Shown: positions 4,518 to 55,829 of the stretch, piece after piece
Position numbering within the stretch: the stretch's first letter is position 1
Layout: each line of letters begins with the position of its first letter
Source: a virus
DNA: 64,000 nt
Strand: one strand, 5' to 3'
Virus record (IMG/VR): IMGVR_UViG_3300028029_000109
Position numbers and translations under genes: made by a program
The notes under the pieces: generated by a model
What the model was told of the DNA's origin: nothing
Databases searched by the model: none
What the model saw: only the letters and a program-made list of their open reading frames with translations

Positions 4518-5140
4518 TGAACGTTAAAAATAAAATAATAGCTTTAGATATTGGCCATGTACTTGCTCGTGTAGATATGAGTCTATTTCATCGCAAGCTC
4601 GTAGAACTTGGATATTCTATGGATGAGGAAGAAGCAGACTTGTTCTCATCTGCCGTTCAAGCATCTTTCGATACAGGCATGCTTGATATGAGACAGGCGC
4701 TACACGTTCATTTTCCCAAGATGAAACGGGACCATGTTAAACAGGTAATAAAATCCTGGGAAGCCGTAGTCACTCCATGTGGCCCTACTATGGAAGCGCT
4801 AGATGAGATACTTTCAGCAGGGGCTACTGTAGCTCTCCTTTCTAATATCGGACTAGATCACGCTGCCTATCTATCAAGAATATGTTTCAGACAGTTTGAT
4901 CGTTGTAAGAAGCATTTTTCTTGTGATGTAGGTGCTAGAAAGCCAACAAAGCTTTATTATCAGTCATTACTACTTGAGCTTGGTTCCCTTCATCTTCCAA
5001 TTATATTTCTGGATGATAGAATTGAAAATGTAGAAGCCGCTAAAACTCAGAATTTTTCATCTCAACTTTTTGATATTGAAAAGTACGATTCTGACGAAGA
5101 TGCAGCTGCAGACTTGATAAAAATCGTTTCTGATTTTTGA
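4517..5140 (+). CDS. HAD-superfamily hydrolase
   Basis: Motif I 'ALDIGHV', II 'LLSN', III 'RKP', IV 'FLDDRIENVEAA'. Confidence 0.8.
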   Translation: MNVKNKIIALDIGHVLARVDMSLFHRKLVELGYSMDEEEADLFSSAVQASFDTGMLDMRQALHVHFPKMKRDHVKQVIKSWEAVVTPCGPTMEALDEILSAGATVALLSNIGLDHAAYLSRICFRQFDRCKKHFSCDVGARKPTKLYYQSLLLELGSLHLPIIFLDDRIENVEAAKTQNFSSQLFDIEKYDSDEDAAADLIKIVSDF

Positions 5141-5163
5141 GATATATAATCATAGGGTAACCT

Positions 5164-5337
5164 ATGAAAAAGATATTATCTCCGAAAGAAGTCTTAGTGG
5201 CAGTTATAACTCATTACGCCAATATTGAAAATTATGATCCAGCTGCTTTTGCTTCAGCAAGGTTTATTGCCGATGACGGAACTATAGAGCTAACCGTAAA
5301 AGTTCCTGCTTCTACTAAAAAGAAGTCACTAAACTAA
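5164..5337 (+). CDS. small hypothetical protein (57 aa)
   Basis: ATG 5164 to TAA 5337, MKKILSPKEVLVAVITHY..., preceded by 'agggt'. Confidence 0.45.
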   Translation: MKKILSPKEVLVAVITHYANIENYDPAAFASARFIADDGTIELTVKVPASTKKKSLN

Positions 5338-5339
5338 TC

Positions 5340-5368
5340 TTGACAAAGTGTGCTATCTCATATACTGT
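5340..5368 (+). promoter_or_regulatory. sigma70-like promoter upstream of repeat-protein array 1
   Basis: TTGACA 5340-5345; -10 candidates TATACT (15-nt spacer) or TACTGT (17-nt spacer). Confidence 0.4.
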
Positions 5369-5579
5369 CGTTTTATAATAGCAGAAAAAACTCGGAAGAA
5401 AATTGTTAAGAAAGACGCTAAGGAACAAGCTAAGGAACAAGCAATCAAGAATATTTAAAAGTCATTTAGAAAATGTTATAATTTATGATTAGAGATGCGA
5501 AGATAGCATTAACAAGCCCTAAATGGGCTTGTAATTTTGCAAGAGATATTCTAAGCAATATTTGAAGGATATTTAGAGA

Positions 5580-6179
5580 ATGTTAGAAGCGCTGATTAGA
5601 GATGAAAAAACTGCTCCGAAATCTTTGGAGTATAAGTTAATAAACAACCTTGCAACTTTAGAGGACCAGGAAGAAGCATTAACGAGGCCTATTTTGGCTT
5701 ATTACTTTGCAAAAGATATTCCAGGAGCTAACATTGAAGTTTGTCAGGAAGTAGCAGCAAAGGATCCTGAATGGGCTTATGAATTTGCAAGAGATGTTAA
5801 AGGAGCAAATATTGAAGTTTGTCAGGGAGGGGCAATCAAGGAGCCTGTATGGGCTTATTACTTTGCAAAAGATGTTACAGGAGCAGATGTTGAAGTCTGT
5901 CAGGAAGCAGTAATCAAGGATCCTGGATTTGCTTATTTATTTGCAAGAGATGTTAAAGGAGCAGACATTGAGGTTTGTCAGGAGCAAGCAATCAAAGATC
6001 CTGAATGGGCTTATAGATTTGCAAAAGATATTCAGGGAGCAGACATTGAAGCTTGCCAGGAGCAAGCAATCAAAGATCCTGTATGGGCTTATTACTTTGC
6101 AAGAGATATTCCAGGAGCAGATATTGAGGTCTGTCAGGAGCAAGCAGTCAAGGATCCTATATGGGCTTATAAATTTTAA
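5580..6179 (+). CDS. 26-aa repeat protein (array 1)
   Basis: Conserved head plus ~6 repeats; ends abruptly at YKF-TAA. Confidence 0.85.
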   Translation: MLEALIRDEKTAPKSLEYKLINNLATLEDQEEALTRPILAYYFAKDIPGANIEVCQEVAAKDPEWAYEFARDVKGANIEVCQGGAIKEPVWAYYFAKDVTGADVEVCQEAVIKDPGFAYLFARDVKGADIEVCQEQAIKDPEWAYRFAKDIQGADIEACQEQAIKDPVWAYYFARDIPGADIEVCQEQAVKDPIWAYKF

Positions 6180-6225
6180 ATATATAGAGGCATCAGGGGT
6201 AAGTCATTATAAGGATATTTAGAGA

Positions 6226-8367: not shown

Positions 8368-9225
8368 ATGTTAGAATTTTTGATTAGAGATGCAAAAACA
8401 GCTCCGAAATCTTTTGGGTATAAGCTAAAAAATAACCTCTTGACATTAGAGGATCAGGAGGAAGCATTAACGAAGCCTAAATGGGCTTATGAATTTGCAA
8501 GATATGTTAAAGGAGCAGATATTGAAGTCTGTCAAGGTGGAGCAGTAAAGGATTCTGTATGGGCTTATTATTTTGCAAAAGATATTGCAGGAGCAGACAT
8601 TGAACTCTGTCAGGAAGCAGCAATCAAGGATCCTGAATGGTCTTATAAATTTGCAAACTATATTCCAGGAGCAGATATTGAAGTCTGTCAGGGTGGAGCA
8701 ATAAAGGAGCCTAAATGGGCTTATTATTTTGCAAGAAATGTTAAAGGAGCAGACATTGAATTATGTCAAGAAGCAGCAATCAAGGAGCCTGAATGGGCTT
8801 ATAGATTTGCAAGAGATGTTACAGGAGCAGATATTGAAGTCTGTCAGGAAGTAGTAATCAATGAGCCCATGTGGGCTTATTATTTTGCAAAACATATTCC
8901 AGGAGCAGATATTGAAGTCTGTCAGGGTGGAGCAATCAAGGATCCTGTATGGGCTTATAGATTTGCAAAGGATATTCCGGGTGCAGACATTGAAATCTGT
9001 CAGGAAGCAACAATTAAAGAGCCTAAATGGTCTTATTGTTTTGCAAAATATGTTCCAGGCGCAGACATTGAGGTCTGTCAGGAGCAAGCAATCAAGGAGC
9101 CTGAATGGGCTCATGAATTTGCAAGAGATGTTATAGGAGCAGATGTTGAAGTCTGTCAGGAACAAGCAGTAAAGGAGCCTATATGGGCTTATAAATTTGC
9201 AAGATATGTTATACGTAATATTTGA
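8368..9225 (+). CDS. 26-aa repeat protein (array 1)
   Basis: Head plus ~9 repeats. Confidence 0.9.
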   Translation: MLEFLIRDAKTAPKSFGYKLKNNLLTLEDQEEALTKPKWAYEFARYVKGADIEVCQGGAVKDSVWAYYFAKDIAGADIELCQEAAIKDPEWSYKFANYIPGADIEVCQGGAIKEPKWAYYFARNVKGADIELCQEAAIKEPEWAYRFARDVTGADIEVCQEVVINEPMWAYYFAKHIPGADIEVCQGGAIKDPVWAYRFAKDIPGADIEICQEATIKEPKWSYCFAKYVPGADIEVCQEQAIKEPEWAHEFARDVIGADVEVCQEQAVKEPIWAYKFARYVIRNI

Positions 9226-20128: not shown

Positions 20129-20800
20129 ATGATATTTTACTATGTGTTAGACACAGAAACGAGCGGGCTTAAAGCAGGCTTCCACGAAATGAATCAGATC
20201 TCTATTATTAGAGTAAGTGATAATTTCCAAAAATCCTGGAATATAGCTGTAGAAAATCCCAACCACGCCTCATCACAGGCATTGCAGATCCAGGGAATAA
20301 CCAAAGCTGATCTCAAAAAGGGAATTACTATTCAGCAAGCCATTAAAGAGGTCAATGAATTCATTGAAGAGGATGGATTGAATGAAACTGCAAGATGTTT
20401 CATTGGTCACAACGTCTCCTTCGATAGAAGATTTATGCAGGCTGCATGGGCTAAAGAGAAGCTTAAGCTTAATATTGACTTATGGCTCTGTACTAAAAAG
20501 TTCATGAAATCATATGTTAAGAAATATGGTGAGGATAATATCAAGGCCGAGCAAGCAAAGGTTCAGCCAGGTGAGACTAAAGTAAAGTATGGTCAAGACC
20601 TGTGCCTTGCTGGTGTTGGGTTAAAGCCAAAGTTTGGCGCTCACTCCGCAGCAATTGACTCCCAAAACTGCCTGACGCTATATCAATTCCTCATGGATAA
20701 AGGTTTAAATCATGCTAGAGTGATTGAGAATAAACCGCATGAAATCATAGGGCTAGTCAAAAAATCATCTGATAGTGGCCCTGAGATGTACGATTTTTGA
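20129..20800 (+). CDS. DEDDh 3'-5' exonuclease (second copy)
   Basis: 'VLDTETSG', 'GHNVSFDRRF', 'HSAAID'. Confidence 0.85.
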   Translation: MIFYYVLDTETSGLKAGFHEMNQISIIRVSDNFQKSWNIAVENPNHASSQALQIQGITKADLKKGITIQQAIKEVNEFIEEDGLNETARCFIGHNVSFDRRFMQAAWAKEKLKLNIDLWLCTKKFMKSYVKKYGEDNIKAEQAKVQPGETKVKYGQDLCLAGVGLKPKFGAHSAAIDSQNCLTLYQFLMDKGLNHARVIENKPHEIIGLVKKSSDSGPEMYDF

Positions 20801-20966: not shown

Positions 20967-22604
20967 ATGTCATCTAATAGCTTTGTACAATCTTTAATTG
21001 GTTCACCTCAGAAGATTGAGCGTAAGGATAAGTATCTTTCTAAGTCTAGCGACTGGAGAGTGAACCTTTCTCGCGTTATGCTTACGGGCGTACTTAAGAA
21101 TCAGTTCTATCGATCCACCCAAAATGCGGCAGATGAAGCGTTGAAGATTACCCCTAGAGCTGCAAAGGAAGATCCAACCTTTCTATTGAAGGCTGTGTGC
21201 TATGCTCGTATCCTAAACATGAAGGGAATGGTTAAGGTAGGACTTGCTGCGCTTAATGGGCATGCAGACACTACCTTCTTAGCTCGTGAGAGCACTAGAT
21301 TGGCAGCTGTAGGTCTTCTATCTACATTTCACCCAGGTCAGCTATTGCAGTTCGTTGAGCTTGTAAGGTCTAAGCAGCTTGGTCGTGGCTTCGGTTCTCG
21401 TCCTCAGAAGTGGGTACGTGCAGCTATGGAAAACTGGAATGTTAAGAGGGTGGAGGATTATACCCTTAAGTACCCAAAGGCACTCAACGCACTAGTGCGT
21501 CTTGTTCATCCACGATACAACGATGAGCGTGGTGGTATTGTAAACTATGTGCTGAATAAGAAGTCCGTAAGGGTAACTGGTTCCAAACAGGTAGTTGTTG
21601 AGGCTTTGAAGCGTGATCTTAATAGCTCCGATGCTTCTGCAAAGGCAGCAGCTAAGGCTATTCTTGAGAATGATATCCCATGGGATGTTATCAAGGGAAT
21701 TGGGTATAAGCTTACTCCAGAGCTAGCAATGGCCCAGATGGTACAGATGGGTTTGACAGCTCTTTTGCTTAACGTGCGCTCACTTGAGCAGCATGGCGCA
21801 TTCTCTAATTTGGATGGCCTCAAAGCTCTTCAGCTTAAGATGGGTGAGGTGAAGAATAGCCGATCTCTTCCGTTGGACTTTGCTAAGCCATACATCTTCT
21901 CATCTAATGAATCTGTTAAAAATGTTCTTCTTGATGCAATGGTTGACACACTAGATGTTCCAATGCCGTTCCTTGAATCCAAGAGAGTTGGCTTGTCCAT
22001 CGATATCTCTCAGTCTATGTCCGGAGAATTTCTTCAGACATCGGCATTGCTTGCAGTGCCATTCTTGAAGGCTAAGAATCTTTGGCTTACTACTTTTGAT
22101 TGGTCTCTTTACGAAGAGTCAGGTATTGTAGCTAAGGCAAACTTAGAAGGGTACGGCTATTATTATCAGTCATGTGCTGATAAGGGTAAGTGTCCAAAGA
22201 TCAATGGCTTACCACGACGTGAGCAAGTTCGCAATCTTCTTGGATTAAAGTCAGCTGGCGGAACTGATATTGCGGTATCAATTCGTCAGGCAACTAAGGA
22301 CAGGCGTAAGCTTGACTTGATGGTACTCATCACCGATGAGCATCAGAACCTTGGCACTAAGCTCATGGACGCTTGGAGACAGTACAGGGGAACGGTTAAC
22401 TCCGGTGCTCAGTTATTTATCATCAATGCAACCAATTATGAATGGGGCGTTTGTGACTATTCAGATCCATCGGTAACGGTGTATCAGTCACTCACTCCAG
22501 CTATTTTTAAGAATCTTGAGTTCCTTGGGATTGATATAGTGTCAGCCATTGAGGATTTTGATCTTGCAAATATTCGTAAGCGTGCTAGAATTAATTTACG
22601 TTAA
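20967..22604 (+). CDS. TROVE + vWA domain protein (Ro60/Rsr-like RNA-binding protein)
   Basis: 545 aa; helical N-terminus with 'L.TG.L.N.FY' and 'AKEDPTFLLKAVCYAR'; vWA MIDAS 'IDISQSM', 'GGTD', 'LITDEHQN'. Confidence 0.8.
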   Translation: MSSNSFVQSLIGSPQKIERKDKYLSKSSDWRVNLSRVMLTGVLKNQFYRSTQNAADEALKITPRAAKEDPTFLLKAVCYARILNMKGMVKVGLAALNGHADTTFLARESTRLAAVGLLSTFHPGQLLQFVELVRSKQLGRGFGSRPQKWVRAAMENWNVKRVEDYTLKYPKALNALVRLVHPRYNDERGGIVNYVLNKKSVRVTGSKQVVVEALKRDLNSSDASAKAAAKAILENDIPWDVIKGIGYKLTPELAMAQMVQMGLTALLLNVRSLEQHGAFSNLDGLKALQLKMGEVKNSRSLPLDFAKPYIFSSNESVKNVLLDAMVDTLDVPMPFLESKRVGLSIDISQSMSGEFLQTSALLAVPFLKAKNLWLTTFDWSLYEESGIVAKANLEGYGYYYQSCADKGKCPKINGLPRREQVRNLLGLKSAGGTDIAVSIRQATKDRRKLDLMVLITDEHQNLGTKLMDAWRQYRGTVNSGAQLFIINATNYEWGVCDYSDPSVTVYQSLTPAIFKNLEFLGIDIVSAIEDFDLANIRKRARINLR

Positions 22605-22800
22605 ATATTGGGTGCATATTTTAACGTAAGTTAAAATAATTTATTGAAAAATTAGTTTTTTGTCGAGTACAGTCACTCCGCCTTCCTTATATAAAGGAAG
22701 GGAGGTGATAACTCACCTTAGTCAGTCACATTTTAAGAAAAGTTCTTGATCTATCAATAACGATCTATAATCTGTGCAGCTCTTGAAATAATAGAGCTTT

Positions 22801-22904
22801 TGTTGGGTAGTTTAAGTAAGAAAACAACACCGTTGAATTTGGTCTCTTAAATGAGATGATGAATACGGAGTGACTCCTGGGTGAGAGCCCTGGGTCCAAC
22901 ACCA
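22801..22904 (+). ncRNA. tRNA-like RNA A with extended anticodon arm
   Basis: Acceptor TGTTGGG/TCCAACA followed by CCA; D arm GTTT/AAAC; T arm CCTGGG-TGAGAGC-CCTGGG; anticodon stem ACACCGT/ACGGAGT closes a ~30-nt loop with internal hairpin TCTC-TTAAAT-GAGA. Confidence 0.55.
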
Positions 22905-23208
22905 AGTAACGCGCTCTATGATCCTTCATCTTTATTTTGATTAAAACCTGGGTCATTATTTCTTTCGTTACTATTAAGTGGAGTACGCTTCCGTTATGGG
23001 CTACTTAATCTGAGGGTGAGACACTCTCTGTCCGCACCGACTATAAGTCGACAAAACTCGAAGTGACGTTCCAGAGATGGAAAGGGTATCCGGAAGCGTG
23101 GAAACATGTTGGAAAGGATTGTCAACGGGCATAAGATATCGCAAGGACCTTTTGCCCACTGCGCAACGCGCTCTCTAAGACCTTTCATCTTTTTCGATTA
23201 AAAATCCG

Positions 23209-23234
23209 AGATGGTTCAAATCCGTCACCGCCCA
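23209..23234 (+). ncRNA. orphan tRNA T-arm plus acceptor-like 3' strand
   Basis: GATGG-TTCAAAT-CCGTC followed by ACCGCCCA; no matching 5' half found upstream. Confidence 0.35.
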
Positions 23235-23284
23235 AAACATGGCAAAGGGGCAAATTGGTCTTACATTTTTTTCGTTGCCATTTA

Positions 23285-23390
23285 GTCCTGGTAGTTCAAT
23301 TCTAGAGCACATCATTCATTAACGGTTTTATAGGCCGAGGATTCCCCACTTTGAATGTGAAAGATATTGGTGAAAATCCAGTCCGGGGCA
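23285..23390 (+). ncRNA. tRNA-like RNA B with extended anticodon arm
   Basis: Acceptor GTCCTGG/CCGGGGC; D arm GTTC/GAGC; T arm ATTGG-TGAAAAT-CCAGT; stem CA(T)CATTC/GAATGTG closes a 35-nt insert; no canonical 7-nt anticodon loop. Confidence 0.6.
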
Positions 23391-23391
23391 C

Positions 23392-23469
23392 GCGAGGATG
23401 CAGCAACTGGCAAGGCTAATAACCCTGTCCTATTGATACAGAGTGGTTCGATTTCTCCTCTTGCTTCCA
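23392..23469 (+). ncRNA. degenerate tRNA-like element
   Basis: GCGAGG/TCTTGC imperfect acceptor, GGTTCGATT T-loop, ends ...TTCCA; stems poorly paired. Confidence 0.3.
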
Positions 23470-23473
23470 TTAT

Positions 23474-23517
23474 ACCCACCGGGCCTCTCAACGATGCTTC
23501 CCTCGGTGGGTTTTCTT
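23474..23517 (+). terminator. intrinsic terminator closing the tRNA-like block
   Basis: ACCCACCG/CGGTGGGT stem followed by TTTCTT. Confidence 0.6.
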
Positions 23518-23784
23518 ATCTAAACGTTGACAATACCGAAAATGATGATATAGCATTATTATTAAATAGACGTAGTGTAATTATCATAGGAGAAAGCCGG
23601 GCTGGTTCTGTTGACCATCCAGGTGAAGAGTGTAGAAATATTGGTTGTAAAAAGTGGAATCCTTGCCCACAGACCTTGATGACCTCCTAGACAGCTACAC
23701 ATTCTCTTAGCGGCTTAAAATGAAATGCAGGCAGTTAATTCTACCTGTATCTTGCCAATAACCAATATTTAATCATACAGTTGT

Positions 23785-24942
23785 ATGATTAAGATTGGTG
23801 AATTACTAAAATTAGCGGCACTATATAGTCTCGCTGCTAAGCTTTCTTTAGCTGGGTTTGAACCCACTAATGAAGCACGCTCAGCTTTCTCATCTTTAGT
23901 AGGATACCTCCAGCAAGAGGATCTTATAAAAATTCAGGAGTTCTACATCCAAGCAGGTGAGCCTAATAACTATCCAGAAGATAGGTCTCAAGGGCTTTCC
24001 AATTTAGACGCTCTAACTGATAGGCTTCTTCAACAACACGGTGATGATGAGGAGTTTAATGCAATATATCATTCTCTTGATATAATTAATGTAGAAGCGG
24101 AGAAAGCATCAAGTGAATCTGGAGCTGAAGAATTTCAATATGAAAATCAATCTCAGGAAGGTGACAGTCAACCACAAGATAACTATGAGGGAACTTCAGA
24201 TAAGGAAGAGTCTTCATTTGAAAATTTTGTTGGTGATGAGGTTAGGGGGATTGCTGAAAATGTTGGATACCAATCAGGTGAAGAAGTTGCTAGAGAGGGT
24301 GGTGGTTCTTTGAAAGATACCGTAAAGAATAAGGAGAGGGTTCAGGCAAGAAGGTCTTACCAAAGACACAATCCAATTTCCAGACCAGATTTTCTTGAGA
24401 AAGAAAGGGTCCACGACTCAAATAGAAGAAGTCCGGGATCTAGACAGTATGAAAGCGCTAGAGATCAAATCATAAAAAGACTTATAAACACTGGTATAAC
24501 AAAAAAACAAGCCATAGAGGATTTTAATGAATCCATTAAATCTAAAGTTCAAAACAGAAATCCAGACCCAGAAAATGAAGCGCAAGTTCGCTTAGAAGAG
24601 ACTCTAAAATACTTAAATTCATTTAAAACAAAATCGGAAAGCCCTGCTGCTCTTAAGAAGAGGGAACAAAGGAAGCGCAACAAAATACGCAAGCTCTATC
24701 TGGAAGAATTAATACAGCAAGATCCTAGTGCTAACGTCAAAGACTTAATTGACCAAATAAAAGCAATGCCTGTGTCTGAAATTGAAGAGATAGGTGGGAG
24801 ACTTTCTCCAGAAGCATTGGGGCCACTAGTAGACTCAGTAAGCACAGCGCCTACACCAACTACTACATCTCCTGCACCTCCTGCACCCAAGCCTCAACAG
24901 GTTAGACCAGGTGTTACAAAGAGAAAAAGAAAAGCTAGTTAA
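23785..24942 (+). CDS. hypothetical protein (acidic/low-complexity, basic Pro-rich tail)
   Basis: 385-aa uninterrupted ORF. Confidence 0.75.
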   Translation: MIKIGELLKLAALYSLAAKLSLAGFEPTNEARSAFSSLVGYLQQEDLIKIQEFYIQAGEPNNYPEDRSQGLSNLDALTDRLLQQHGDDEEFNAIYHSLDIINVEAEKASSESGAEEFQYENQSQEGDSQPQDNYEGTSDKEESSFENFVGDEVRGIAENVGYQSGEEVAREGGGSLKDTVKNKERVQARRSYQRHNPISRPDFLEKERVHDSNRRSPGSRQYESARDQIIKRLINTGITKKQAIEDFNESIKSKVQNRNPDPENEAQVRLEETLKYLNSFKTKSESPAALKKREQRKRNKIRKLYLEELIQQDPSANVKDLIDQIKAMPVSEIEEIGGRLSPEALGPLVDSVSTAPTPTTTSPAPPAPKPQQVRPGVTKRKRKAS

Positions 24943-25188: not shown

Positions 25189-25261
25189 CCGGGTATAGTG
25201 TAATCTGGTAGCACGAATGCTTTGGGAGCATTTAGTTTTGGTTCAAATCCAGATTCCCGGA
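25189..25261 (+). tRNA. tRNA-Pro(UGG)
   Basis: Cloverleaf: CCGGGTA/TTCCCGG, anticodon arm AATGC-TTTGGGA-GCATT, T arm TTTGG-TTCAAAT-CCAGA. Confidence 0.88.
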
Positions 25262-25358
25262 CTAGATAGACTAGTACAGATTGTAAATATTACAACGGAA
25301 GAATTAATAAAAATTAAAATGTAGAGCTAAGTAAAAGATTTTCAGTTAGAAATAAAAT

Positions 25359-25392
25359 CAGTGTGTAGGCTAATCTGGTAAGTCGCTCACCC
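25359..25392 (+). pseudogene. isolated tRNA 5' half (Pro-like)
   Basis: CAGTGTG-TA-GGCT-AATCTGGTA-AGTC-G-CTCAC: acceptor and D arm present, but no T arm follows. Confidence 0.45.
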
Positions 25393-25512
25393 TTACCGAT
25401 ATCTATAGTAAAAAAACGCTGTGTGGCACTAATAATAAAGCACAGCACTGCCAACCTCACCGTCATGAGTGAGGTTGGCTACCTTCCCTGTCGCTTTTTC
25501 GTTTATTAATAT

Positions 25513-25587
25513 TGGCAGGTAGCTCAGTCCGGTGAGAGCAGAGTCCTTATAAGGCTCAGGTCGAGGGTTCGAATCCCTTTCTGCCAA
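25513..25587 (+). tRNA. tRNA-Ile(UAU)
   Basis: Cloverleaf: TGGCAGG/TCTGCCA, anticodon arm GAGTC-CTTATAA-GGCTC, T arm GAGGG-TTCGAAT-CCCTT. Confidence 0.92.
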
Positions 25588-26050
25588 CCTTAATGGGATA
25601 TGAATACCATCCCAAATCTTTTACTATTTTTCTTTTATGACAATTAGAACATAAAACTTGACATTTTGATATTTCATTTTTAATTCTATTTATAGAGATG
25701 CATCTTGCAACGCCATGAGATATTGCAAATTCCTTTTCTCTCAAGTGATCAAGCTCTAGAACTATAGGGTCATCTTCACCACATTGAACGCATGGATTAG
25801 CCATAAGGTAATCATAAACGTATTTCCTTAATTTTTGTTGCCTTTCCTTTTTGGCCTTCAATATGTTTTTCAACTGAGATTCCCTGTTCTCAGAATATTG
25901 CTTTTTGGCACGCTCTTTCGAACAAGATCTGCATATTCCCTGTAACCCGTCCACAGTTGATTTCTTTTTATTGAAGTCAGATGCGTCTTTTTCAACTTTA
26001 CATTTGCAACATTTTTTACTCACAGTTCTTATAAGCGATATTATTGACAT
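25556..26050 (-). CDS. HNH endonuclease
   Basis: 'KKCCKCKVEK...F...GLQGICRSC' and 'CVQCGEDDPIVLELDH...CQVLCSNCHKRK'; start set at ATG 26050; 3' end overlaps tRNA-Ile antisense. Confidence 0.8.
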   Translation of the reverse strand: MSIISLIRTVSKKCCKCKVEKDASDFNKKKSTVDGLQGICRSCSKERAKKQYSENRESQLKNILKAKKERQQKLRKYVYDYLMANPCVQCGEDDPIVLELDHLREKEFAISHGVARCISINRIKNEISKCQVLCSNCHKRKIVKDLGWYSYPIKVGRKGFEPST

Positions 26051-51954: not shown

Positions 51955-52116
51955 AGTTCCTCTTTAGGTGAAGGTATTTATCTATATACCACCCCAGAGG
52001 ACTCGACAAAAAACCCTCCGTAATTAGCATCATTGAGAGGCTCAGAGGGTTGCGCGATTCCTAAGAACCGGCCAGGAGCGACCTGGAGCGACCTGGTACT
52101 ATATTTCGCTACTTAG

Positions 52117-52191
52117 TGCAAGTATCGGGATTCTAACCCGAACCTTATCCGTGAAAGGAATGCGTGCTATTCCGTTAGACACTATACTCAA
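52117..52191 (-). tRNA. tRNA-Glu(UUC)
   Basis: Reverse strand: anticodon loop CTTTCAC, T arm TCGGG-TTAGAAT-CCCGA, acceptor 6/7 paired. Confidence 0.78.
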
Positions 52192-55755: not shown

Positions 55756-55829
55756 TCGAGCAAGCTGGAATTGAACCAGCGAACCTCATCCTTACCAAGA
55801 ATGCGCTCTGCTATTTGAGGTATTGGGGT
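55756..55829 (-). pseudogene. tRNA-Thr(GGU) pseudogene
   Basis: Intact anticodon arm CATTC-TTGGTAA-GGATG and T arm GCTGG-TTCAATT-CCAGC, but only 3 of 7 acceptor pairs. Confidence 0.6.

Follow-up and report, generated by a model that had tools for sequence, protein, structure and literature searches.

The stretch of viral DNA considered here (64,000 nucleotides (nt); IMG/VR record IMGVR_UViG_3300028029_000109; hereafter the window) carries a gene for the protein Ro60 and, downstream of it on the same strand, a Ro60-linked non-coding unit of ~750 nt, the parts of which are collected in Table 1. An earlier note, made from the letters of the sequence, had described a non-coding stretch beside a Ro60/TROVE gene at this site, and both halves of that description hold: no open reading frame (ORF) reaches the 40-amino-acid (aa) listing limit on the plus strand of 22605-23366, and the identity of the gene is backed by profile searches. 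That is, a profile built from the window Ro60 and 20 relatives matches Deinococcus radiodurans Rsr (2nvo, E = 3e-18) as well as the Xenopus/human Ro60 structures (1yvp/9nen), and the protein itself falls in PHROG 850 (RNA-binding protein). Among 88 Ro60 homologs, those of 43-74% identity occur only on large-phage contigs (of at most 459 kb), while bacterial Ro60 genes are ~25% identical to that of the window; the Ro60 protein of the related locus L001, to which much of what follows is compared, is 74% identical. A nucleotide search (blastn) with the locus and RNA region against 50,697 phage records returned no match, and a translated search (tblastn) of the phage records with the window Ro60 returned Gordonia phages only, at 24% identity.

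Table 1. Features of the Ro60 locus and of the non-coding unit downstream of it (window coordinates)
Feature	Position	Strand	Basis
DEDDh/RNase T-type 3'-5' exonuclease gene	20129-20800	+	Pfam RNase_T, E = 3e-13
Ro60 gene (TROVE + vWA), 545 aa	20967-22604	+	Pfam vWA_Ro60 and profile matches
TTGTCGAG motif, then strong conserved hairpin, between Ro60 stop and RNA unit	22660-22718	+	-22.8 kcal/mol, z -3.7
Promoter-like site: -10 TATAAT at 22766-22771, weak -35	22743-22771	+	Read from sequence
5' leader hairpin	22778-22798	+	AGCUCU/AGAGCU versus AGCCCU/AGGGCU in L001, one compensatory pair
tRNA-like 1: 7-bp acceptor, UA, D arm GUUU/AAAC, insert-bearing "anticodon" arm, 6-bp T stem, loop UGAGAGC, encoded CCA	22801-22904	+	Minimum-free-energy cloverleaf
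Y RNA 1 (Y1), short form: closing stem, CGC bulge, second stem, UUCAUC loop, U-rich 3' side	22905-22972	+	R1 model, 68.6 bits, E = 2e-15
Degenerate mini tRNA-like: T arm 23012-23028, loop UGAGACA, 5/7 acceptor pairs, no anticodon arm	22978-23039	+	Strict T-arm hairpin; acceptor by eye
Window-specific spacer RNA, ending in hairpin 23127-23157 and ACUG abutting Y2	23040-23161	+	Fold z -1.0
Y RNA 2 (Y2), long form: same core with 51-nt insertion	23162-23279	+	R1 model, 40.8 bits, E = 6e-8
tRNA-like 2: 7/7 acceptor, D arm, insert-bearing anticodon arm, T-arm loop UGAAAAU, discriminator A	23285-23390	+	Rfam tRNA, 26 bits; strict acceptor/T scan
tRNA-like 3: badly degenerate tRNA relic ending in CCA	23391-23469	+	ARAGORN only at -ps90; fold z +0.8
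abiF-motif-type hairpin and U tract, intrinsic terminator of the unit	23475-23517	+	Rfam abiF, 32.5 bits, E = 0.001

Y RNA cores downstream of Ro60

We infer that the partners of Ro60 in this unit are two Y RNAs, Y1 and Y2, which the earlier note overlooked and which begin 301 and 558 nt past the Ro60 stop codon on the same strand. Both share a plan in which a closing stem (NNNAACG/CGUUNNN) with a CGC bulge on its 5' side leads into a variable second stem, a UUCAUC sequence, and a U-rich 3' side or U-run. The minimum-free-energy (MFE) fold of Y1 is the structure of the family model (z -2.5). Y2, which is 86% identical to L001 6029-6150, carries in its insertion a canonical T arm (GAUGG-UUCAAAU-CCGUC) and a small hairpin, and its MFE fold retains both core stems and the T arm.

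The repeated unit was first recognized by reading the DNA downstream of Ro60 in L001 and a second relative, L002, and a covariance model (R1) was then built from 18 short units. R1 found 38 units in 17 related loci, and the addition of further loci brought the set to 48 distinct units in 18 analyzed large-phage loci. Within Ro60 loci, every R1 match lies downstream of Ro60 and on its strand; over 706 kb around distant Ro60 genes, R1 gave zero matches. In a 40-sequence alignment of the family, 92.5% of cells are paired (35-48% in slid controls), both sides have changed in 12 of the 14 modeled pairs, and none of 500 shuffles reaches the observed covariation score. The family is thus a well-supported addition below current Rfam thresholds, with 48 units and strong covariation. 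Over the region as a whole, Rfam searches at gathering thresholds and at E <= 10 returned no YrlA, Y_RNA, GOLLD, ROOL, tmRNA, or intron family, the only matches being sub-threshold ones to tRNA and abiF; the tmRNA mode of ARAGORN returned none.

These results change the reading of the locus in one central respect. The earlier note took the tRNA-like elements themselves to be the Ro60 partners, as a new class of Ro-associated mimics, whereas the covarying RNAs linked to Ro60 are Y1 and Y2, and their long relatives are permuted in the manner of YrlA, the bacterial Y RNA. Its observation that the Ro-binding consensus GNCGAAN0-1G is missing was sound: the motif occurs in the first 25 nt of one of the 48 units, and ACG[CU][GA] stands in 45 of them instead. 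The conserved closing stem with its CGC bulge is the likely, predicted Ro60-binding handle.

R1 also matches far from Ro60, inside large tRNA islands found by searching the whole contigs of five relatives. Inside the same core, the long Y units of these islands hold first a T arm, next an acceptor stem-loop that is closed and 7 bp long, and then UA with a canonical D arm; examples of this permuted order among long relatives are L294 6036-5902, L297 177-53, and L175 4627-4755. In the jumbo-phage islands of the relatives (L294, which is G004:183000-193500, and L296, L297, and L298), Y units alternate with real tRNAs at gaps of 0-6 nt, and some Y cores enclose a tRNA-like of normal topology (L294 9568-9637, scoring 41 bits as tRNA, and L296 978-1051, called as tRNA-Ile). 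Since Y cores variously carry or enclose tRNA parts in these islands, every arrangement of handle plus tRNA piece is found within one family: no tRNA piece, a T arm only, a permuted T arm/acceptor stem/D arm, and an embedded tRNA-like of normal topology.

A further place in the window resembles a Y core. The spacer at 25263-25512, between tRNA-Pro (25189-25262) and tRNA-Ile (25513-25589), ends in CUUUUUCGUUUAU, with which its 5' end can pair as in a degenerate core; R1 finds no Y unit there. Around the same two tRNAs in L001, clearer Y-like units (GAAGCGCG...UUUUUCGCUUC) lie at 8419-8522 and 8607-8738.

tRNA derivatives that abut the Y RNAs

The elements that flank the Y RNAs are real tRNA derivatives that are unable to decode; this holds for tRNA-like 1 and tRNA-like 2 and, on a weaker assignment, for the mini tRNA-like at 22978-23039 and for element 3. 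As the earlier note described, the two main elements have complete acceptor, D, and T arms: all 7 acceptor pairs form, the T stems are 5-6 bp (22801-22901 and 23285-23389), and the D stem is 4 bp in both. Also as described there, the place of the anticodon arm is taken by a stem, of 5-7 bp, that closes a 30-35-nt insert, so that free-standing elements of normal, unpermuted topology have no usable anticodon arm. The loops depart from those of ordinary tRNAs, in that the D loops (AAGUAAGA and AAUUCUA) lack GG and the T loops (UGAGAGC and UGAAAAU) are not of the UUC type. Independent MFE folds of tRNA-like 1 give a cloverleaf in both the window and L001, and between the two there are several double, pair-preserving changes in the acceptor, anticodon-like, and T stems; these compensatory changes were read by eye, as the MAFFT alignment of the two sequences is out of register by one column in the T-stem strands.

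The earlier note counted five T-arm-like hairpins across the unit. Four of them pass a strict definition (5 bp with at least 2 GC pairs and a 7-nt loop UNNNANN), at 22877, 23012, 23210, and 23366, where 0.13 would be expected (Poisson P = 1e-5 against the rest of the window); the fifth, at ~23441, is imperfect. The T arms between the two main elements are likewise real, but the one at 23210 belongs to Y2, a closed-end unit, and not to a free-standing element. Elsewhere in the window there are two borderline tRNA-likes on the minus strand, 52117-52189 (Rfam 28.6 bits), which sits between a tRNA-Gly and a second abiF-type hairpin, and 55761-55825 (30.4 bits), which has a truncated acceptor.

Detectors of tRNA place the elements below threshold, as a check proposed in the earlier note has made plain. 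ARAGORN in default and intron modes calls no tRNA in 22600-23800; only at -ps85 and with introns allowed does it model 22802-22904, with a 26-nt "intron," and 23285-23391, with a 28-nt "intron." The Rfam tRNA model gives 26 bits to 23285-23390 (cut-off 29) and nothing to 22801-22904 or to the other elements. Could elements 1 and 2 be working tRNAs (Phe-GAA and Ile-UAU) with short spliced introns in the anticodon loop? The ARAGORN models have this form, and a gene for the ligase RtcB lies near the locus in L176, a related locus. Bacterial tRNA introns, however, belong to the self-splicing group I and span at least a couple of hundred nt. The calls come far below default thresholds and with non-canonical intron positions, the anticodon stem of element 1 retains an A.A mismatch, the insert of the L001 counterpart is unalignable and would yield a different anticodon, GG is missing from the D loops and UUC from the T loops, and no intron family was matched in Rfam. 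We therefore rejected intron-containing tRNAs, a reading that we consider highly improbable.

What is conserved instead? Despite the 74% identity of the Ro60 proteins, the anticodon regions of window and L001 cannot be aligned; a GAAA tetraloop caps the region in L103 (3237-3306), in L096 (5752-5810) the arm is missing, and in L001 the slot of tRNA-like 2 is filled by a 31-nt acceptor/T minihelix (6162-6192, z -4.1) that lacks the D/anticodon half altogether. Because the anticodon region is unconstrained and the acceptor and T stems are held by compensatory changes, we take the conserved part to be the minihelix. An earlier suggestion, that the elements are decoys for anticodon nucleases, is weakened by the same observations, the anticodon region being the least conserved part.

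When scored, the elements come out as pseudo-tRNAs or as tRNAs with an insert, an outcome that the earlier note had counted against its own proposal; equivalents nevertheless adjoin Ro60 in relatives (L001, L096, L103, L104, L105, L107, L176, and L177). Moreover, they meet the Y units at nearly fixed junctions. In the window, the CCA that ends tRNA-like 1 (22904) runs straight into Y1 (from 22905); tRNA-like 2 begins at 23285, shortly after the end of Y2 (23279), and element 3 follows tRNA-like 2 directly (23390/23391). A first, loose acceptor/T scan had a background of 12.5% and was replaced by a strict one, which requires 7/7 acceptor pairs and a T arm. By this strict scan, an element ends 0-6 nt upstream of 15 of the 48 Y units (background 1.7%, p = 2e-15) and starts 0-12 nt downstream of 12 (background 3.6%, p = 9e-8); C[CU]A(A) precedes 18. 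The slots are interchangeable, for real tRNAs fill them in L002 (tRNA-Met), L007, L103, and the tRNA islands at gaps of 0-6 nt, and tRNA-likes missed by the detectors fill them in the window, L001, L096, L104, and L105. The 0-6-nt abutment is kept even for degenerate elements.

The explanation that we favor, and that we hold to be reasonably probable, sees in the tRNA-like elements handles for processing, derived from tRNAs, by which the Y RNAs are set free. The acceptor/T-arm minihelix is recognized by RNase P, by the nucleases that act on tRNA 3' ends, and by the CCA-adding enzyme. In the proposed mechanism, the promoter would drive a single transcript in which a leader hairpin, tRNA-like 1, Y1, the spacer, Y2, tRNA-like 2, the tRNA relic, and the abiF-type hairpin follow one another. 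The domesticated tRNAs, which keep the minihelix, take the slots that in related arrays go to real tRNAs, and tRNA-processing enzymes of the host (perhaps also of the phage) would cut at their borders. Each Y RNA would thereby be released with its 5' end just after ...CCA or ...CUA and with a short U-rich 3' tail before the next tRNA-like; its conserved stem and bulge would then be the site at which it binds the phage Ro60. The proposal builds on the anatomy of the elements, the Y family and its covariation, the statistics of the junctions, and the lost tRNA identity; single-unit transcription, Ro60 binding, and the cleavages are its predictions.

Several observations weigh against this proposal. 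About two-thirds of the Y units have no preceding tRNA-like element, some of them starting at a promoter and others following a plain hairpin and ACUG, so the handles cannot be obligatory. RNase P reads an elbow from which the D loops, lacking GG, and the T loops (UGAGAGC and UGAAAAU) deviate, and the tRNA-like elements have only modest thermodynamic z scores (-0.8 to -1.4). The sequencing runs in which the sequence of the locus occurs are DNA runs only, one of them probably from the source sample. An encoded CCA without a spacer could stop some bacterial RNase Z enzymes from cutting, which would leave a chimera of tRNA-like 1 and Y1. Finally, three tandem tRNA-likes of L176 share the UAGUUUAAG D arm of tRNA-like 1 and yet lie apart from any Y unit, which hints at an independent role, and this D-arm signature also occurs inside the permuted Y units of L175.

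Some of these points speak for a different role, in which the tRNA-likes would be functional mimics, either fused to Y as an unpermuted counterpart of the YrlA domain or acting in trans, and would serve as a tRNA-shaped ligand for the Ro60 particle or for host tRNA-binding factors, defense nucleases among them; this widens the idea put forward in the earlier note. The D arm of tRNA-like 1 (UAGUUUAAG...AAC) is the D arm of the permuted L175 units (near 4706 and 4956) and of the free-standing L176 elements, the Y family shows every arrangement of handle and tRNA piece from none to an embedded normal-topology tRNA-like, and a blocked RNase Z would yield just such a fusion of tRNA-like 1 to Y1. 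Mimicry of this kind seems to us doubtful, although it deserves weight. An anticodon region that is unconstrained or missing argues against decoys for anticodon nucleases, in relatives these slots are taken by tRNAs that really decode, and the bare minihelix of L001 does what the window does with tRNA-like 2; nor are an internal T arm and an upstream tRNA-like clearly complementary (~1/7 versus ~15/31; judged by eye over 38 units).

Alternatively, the tRNA-likes may be decaying, functionless tRNA genes of an array, with the Y RNAs processed independently of them. All of the elements are sub-threshold, element 3 folds no better than its shuffles (z = +0.8), the mini tRNA-like is absent from L001, and most Y units lack an adjacent handle. 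Simple decay would not, however, hold the stems of tRNA-like 1 by several double substitutions relative to L001 while its loops and insert diverge freely; nor does it sit well with the recurrence of the non-canonical T loops UGAAAAU/UGAGA.. in the window, L103, L107, and L001 or with the 0-6-nt abutment that persists in degenerate elements. We consider it unlikely for the set as a whole. Element 3 and 22978-23039 may nonetheless be simple relics, the assignment of the latter being weak because it is not conserved in L001. The slot of element 3 holds a real tRNA(CAU) in L001 (56 bits), to which its sequence similarity is weak; the MAFFT alignment of the two is not convincing, and that element 3 is a decayed counterpart of this tRNA is a tentative reading, drawn from position and a few short matches.

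If the processing-handle proposal is true, then bacteriophages would have kept tRNA-shaped modules only to set the ends of another non-coding RNA (ncRNA). So far, most known modules that define RNA ends in this way come from eukaryotes or from viruses of eukaryotes. What the tRNA-like half of bacterial Y RNAs does has been a standing question since 2014, and the present phage clade separates the parts. It offers, inside tRNA arrays, a natural series that runs from minimal Y cores through cores bearing a T arm to permuted YrlA-like units, together with free-standing tRNA-likes, all at fixed 0-6-nt junctions, and this series is well suited to two questions: does Y RNA biogenesis ride on tRNA processing, and what does the tRNA module contribute?

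Ends of the unit and neighboring genes

Folded as one RNA, the whole 751 nt is uninformative (z = +0.46), and the parts are better considered one at a time. At the 5' end, the TATAAT reported in the earlier note is present, and L001 has kept the promoter block, in the form TTGACA-17-TATAAT; the -35 of the window is weak, for which reason a consensus scan did not list the site. The block upstream of it, at 22660-22718, is 83% identical to its L001 counterpart. Its motif, TTGTCGAG, occurs four times in the window against 0.94 expected (22660-22667, 2609, 32885, and 52002-52009 on the minus strand), and a (U-rich)GTCGAG sequence recurs just upstream of tRNA/Y RNA arrays in L006-L009, L096-L107, and L176. 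This motif may be a phage-specific promoter or regulatory element. Between Y1 and Y2, the spacer contains at 23068-23122 four GGAA(A/G) repeats at a spacing of ~12 nt that are absent from L001 and that recall, by analogy, the GGA-repeat RNAs that act as protein sponges. The hairpin and ACUG/ACUA with which the spacer ends also directly precede a Y unit in L001, L007, and L175.

The terminator reported at the 3' end of the unit is there as well, a hairpin and U tract (-16.7 kcal/mol, z -3.1, with 0/200 shuffles as good), and its identity adds a further element. The hairpin has a 9-10-bp stem and an exact 15-nt loop core, GCCUCUCAACGAUGC, at 23483-23497, and it scores 32.5 bits with the abiF model at 23475-23511, below the cut-off of 37 bits. 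A second copy (24.6 bits), at 52013-52049 on the minus strand, ends another tRNA cluster and is followed by a U tract. The core is found in more than 100 viral contigs, and 92 of 114 instances have a covarying closing stem, so we regard it as a genuine and widespread phage hairpin. In Clostridioides difficile, RCd22 is the antitoxin RNA of an AbiF type III toxin-antitoxin system (bioRxiv 10.1101/2025.04.15.648962). The terminal hairpin shares with the abiF motif (RF03085) the conserved loop core and closing stem; unlike that motif, it occurs here as a single copy rather than as a tandem pair, and it also serves to terminate a unit of tRNA-likes and Y RNAs. Searches of Pfam, PHROG, and PADLOC revealed no AbiF/Abi_2-like gene downstream of either window copy: the first is followed by a 385-aa ORF without a match in any of the three, and within ~300 nt downstream of the second, only ORFs of at most 66 aa start. 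Each of the two hairpins thus ends a tRNA/tRNA-like cluster with a U tract and has no AbiF-like gene after it. The hairpin could be a terminator that doubles as an antitoxin mimic.

One may speculate further and regard the operon as a modularly split YrlA, in which unpermuted tRNA-likes and Y cores, joined as chimeras in cis or acting in trans, would give the phage Ro60 particle a means of engaging or sequestering host factors directed at tRNA; counting in the abiF-type, antitoxin-like hairpin that closes it, the operon would then be an RNA counter-defense cassette. We consider this extension to be something of a long shot.

The genes around Ro60 are consistent with a role in RNA metabolism. 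The order RNase T-like exonuclease, one or two small ORFs, Ro60 is kept in the window, L001-L004, and L175-L177, and relatives have a CCA-adding enzyme (PolyA_pol with HD or tRNA_NucTran2_2) and RtcB near the Ro60 locus. Together, the CCA-adding enzyme, the RNase T-type exonuclease, and RtcB around Ro60 suggest a phage module for RNA end processing and repair, and the enzyme set would fit a module similar to the bacterial rsr-yrlBA-rtcBA operon. Gene neighborhood by itself is a weak basis for supposing a contact between Ro60 and the exonuclease, the known tether in Deinococcus being the RNA and not a protein contact. Several relatives also have a conserved gene pair on the minus strand between Ro60 and the RNA array, encoding proteins of ~210-245 aa (with faint DUF1664 matches) and ~60-70 aa; it is present in L002 (5565-6465), L003/L004 (5559-6360), L096 (~4900-5600), and L177 (4694-5543) and absent from the window and L001.

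Comparison with known Ro60-linked and tRNA-shaped RNAs

YrlA and YrlB are Y RNAs of bacteria and mycobacteriophages that are bound by Rsr/Ro60 (Chen et al. 2014, PMC4201824), and the defining domain of YrlA is a permuted tRNA-like in which a T arm, a closed acceptor stem-loop, and a D arm follow one another (PMC4201824). The YrlA of Mycobacterium smegmatis is cut by RNase P and receives CCA. The resemblance of the present family to YrlA (RF02553) is considerable: its members are encoded beside Ro60, several to a locus; their ends pair into a closing stem beside a conserved motif in the 5' strand, in a stem-bulge-stem arrangement; and the long units of the family match RF02553 at 30-45 bits (E = 4e-7 to 1e-2), under the cut-off of 69 bits. 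There are also clear distinctions. The handle motif is AACGCGC in place of GNCGAAN0-1G, a tRNA domain is lacking in Y1 and reduced in Y2 to a T arm and a small hairpin, the permuted domain being confined to long relatives; neither Y1 nor Y2 matches RF02553 at E <= 10. In addition, the units here are embedded in arrays of tRNAs and tRNA-likes at 0-6-nt spacing. The survey of Chen et al. dropped hits that overlapped tRNAs in tandem and was confined to hits no more than 4 kb from Ro60 (PMC4201824), and it would have missed such a context. Given that neither the motif nor the Rfam score of YrlA is found here, we place the family as a divergent branch that would work like YrlA/YrlB.

Phage-encoded pairs of Ro60 and Y-like RNA are known from elsewhere. 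In the Thermus phage phiLo, binding of phi-Ro60 to Yrl1/Yrl2 has been shown experimentally (NAR 2025, PMC12135203). As in the window, a phage Ro60 gene has two adjacent Y-like RNAs with a stem-bulge-stem; in contrast, the phiLo RNAs lie upstream of the gene rather than downstream, have a CGAA motif, and are reported without tRNA-like flanks, and the protein is distant from the window Ro60 (9l5y/9kop match the profile at E = 2e-6). Analogous small RNAs beside Ro60-like proteins, in tRNA operons of Felix O1-type and other phages, are described as having another handle (UACAGCAA).

For the tRNA-shaped elements, the closest parallels lie outside the Ro60 field. tRNA-like signals for processing are known from the mascRNA of MALAT1/MEN-beta, from the tRNA-miRNA transcripts (TMER) of MHV68, and from the tRNA-snoRNA dicistrons of plants; the mascRNA family was among the Rfam models searched. 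In each, a tRNA-shaped module that does not decode sets the ends of a neighboring ncRNA, much as is proposed here, where the cleavage is predicted. These systems are eukaryotic or belong to eukaryotic viruses, whereas the present one is a bacteriophage array with Y RNAs as its cargo. Structured ncRNAs that ride in mobile tRNA arrays have a precedent in GOLLD, which occurs in Mycobacterium tRNA arrays according to a citation in PMC9569102; the cargo here consists of small Y RNAs tied to Ro60.

In total, a phage Ro60 gene with adjacent Y-like RNAs is already known, both from mycobacteriophages and from Thermus phage phiLo. New here are a Y family that is specific to this clade and has another handle motif, the setting of that family among tRNAs and tRNA-likes at fixed junctions, and the tRNA derivatives, no longer able to decode, that flank it.

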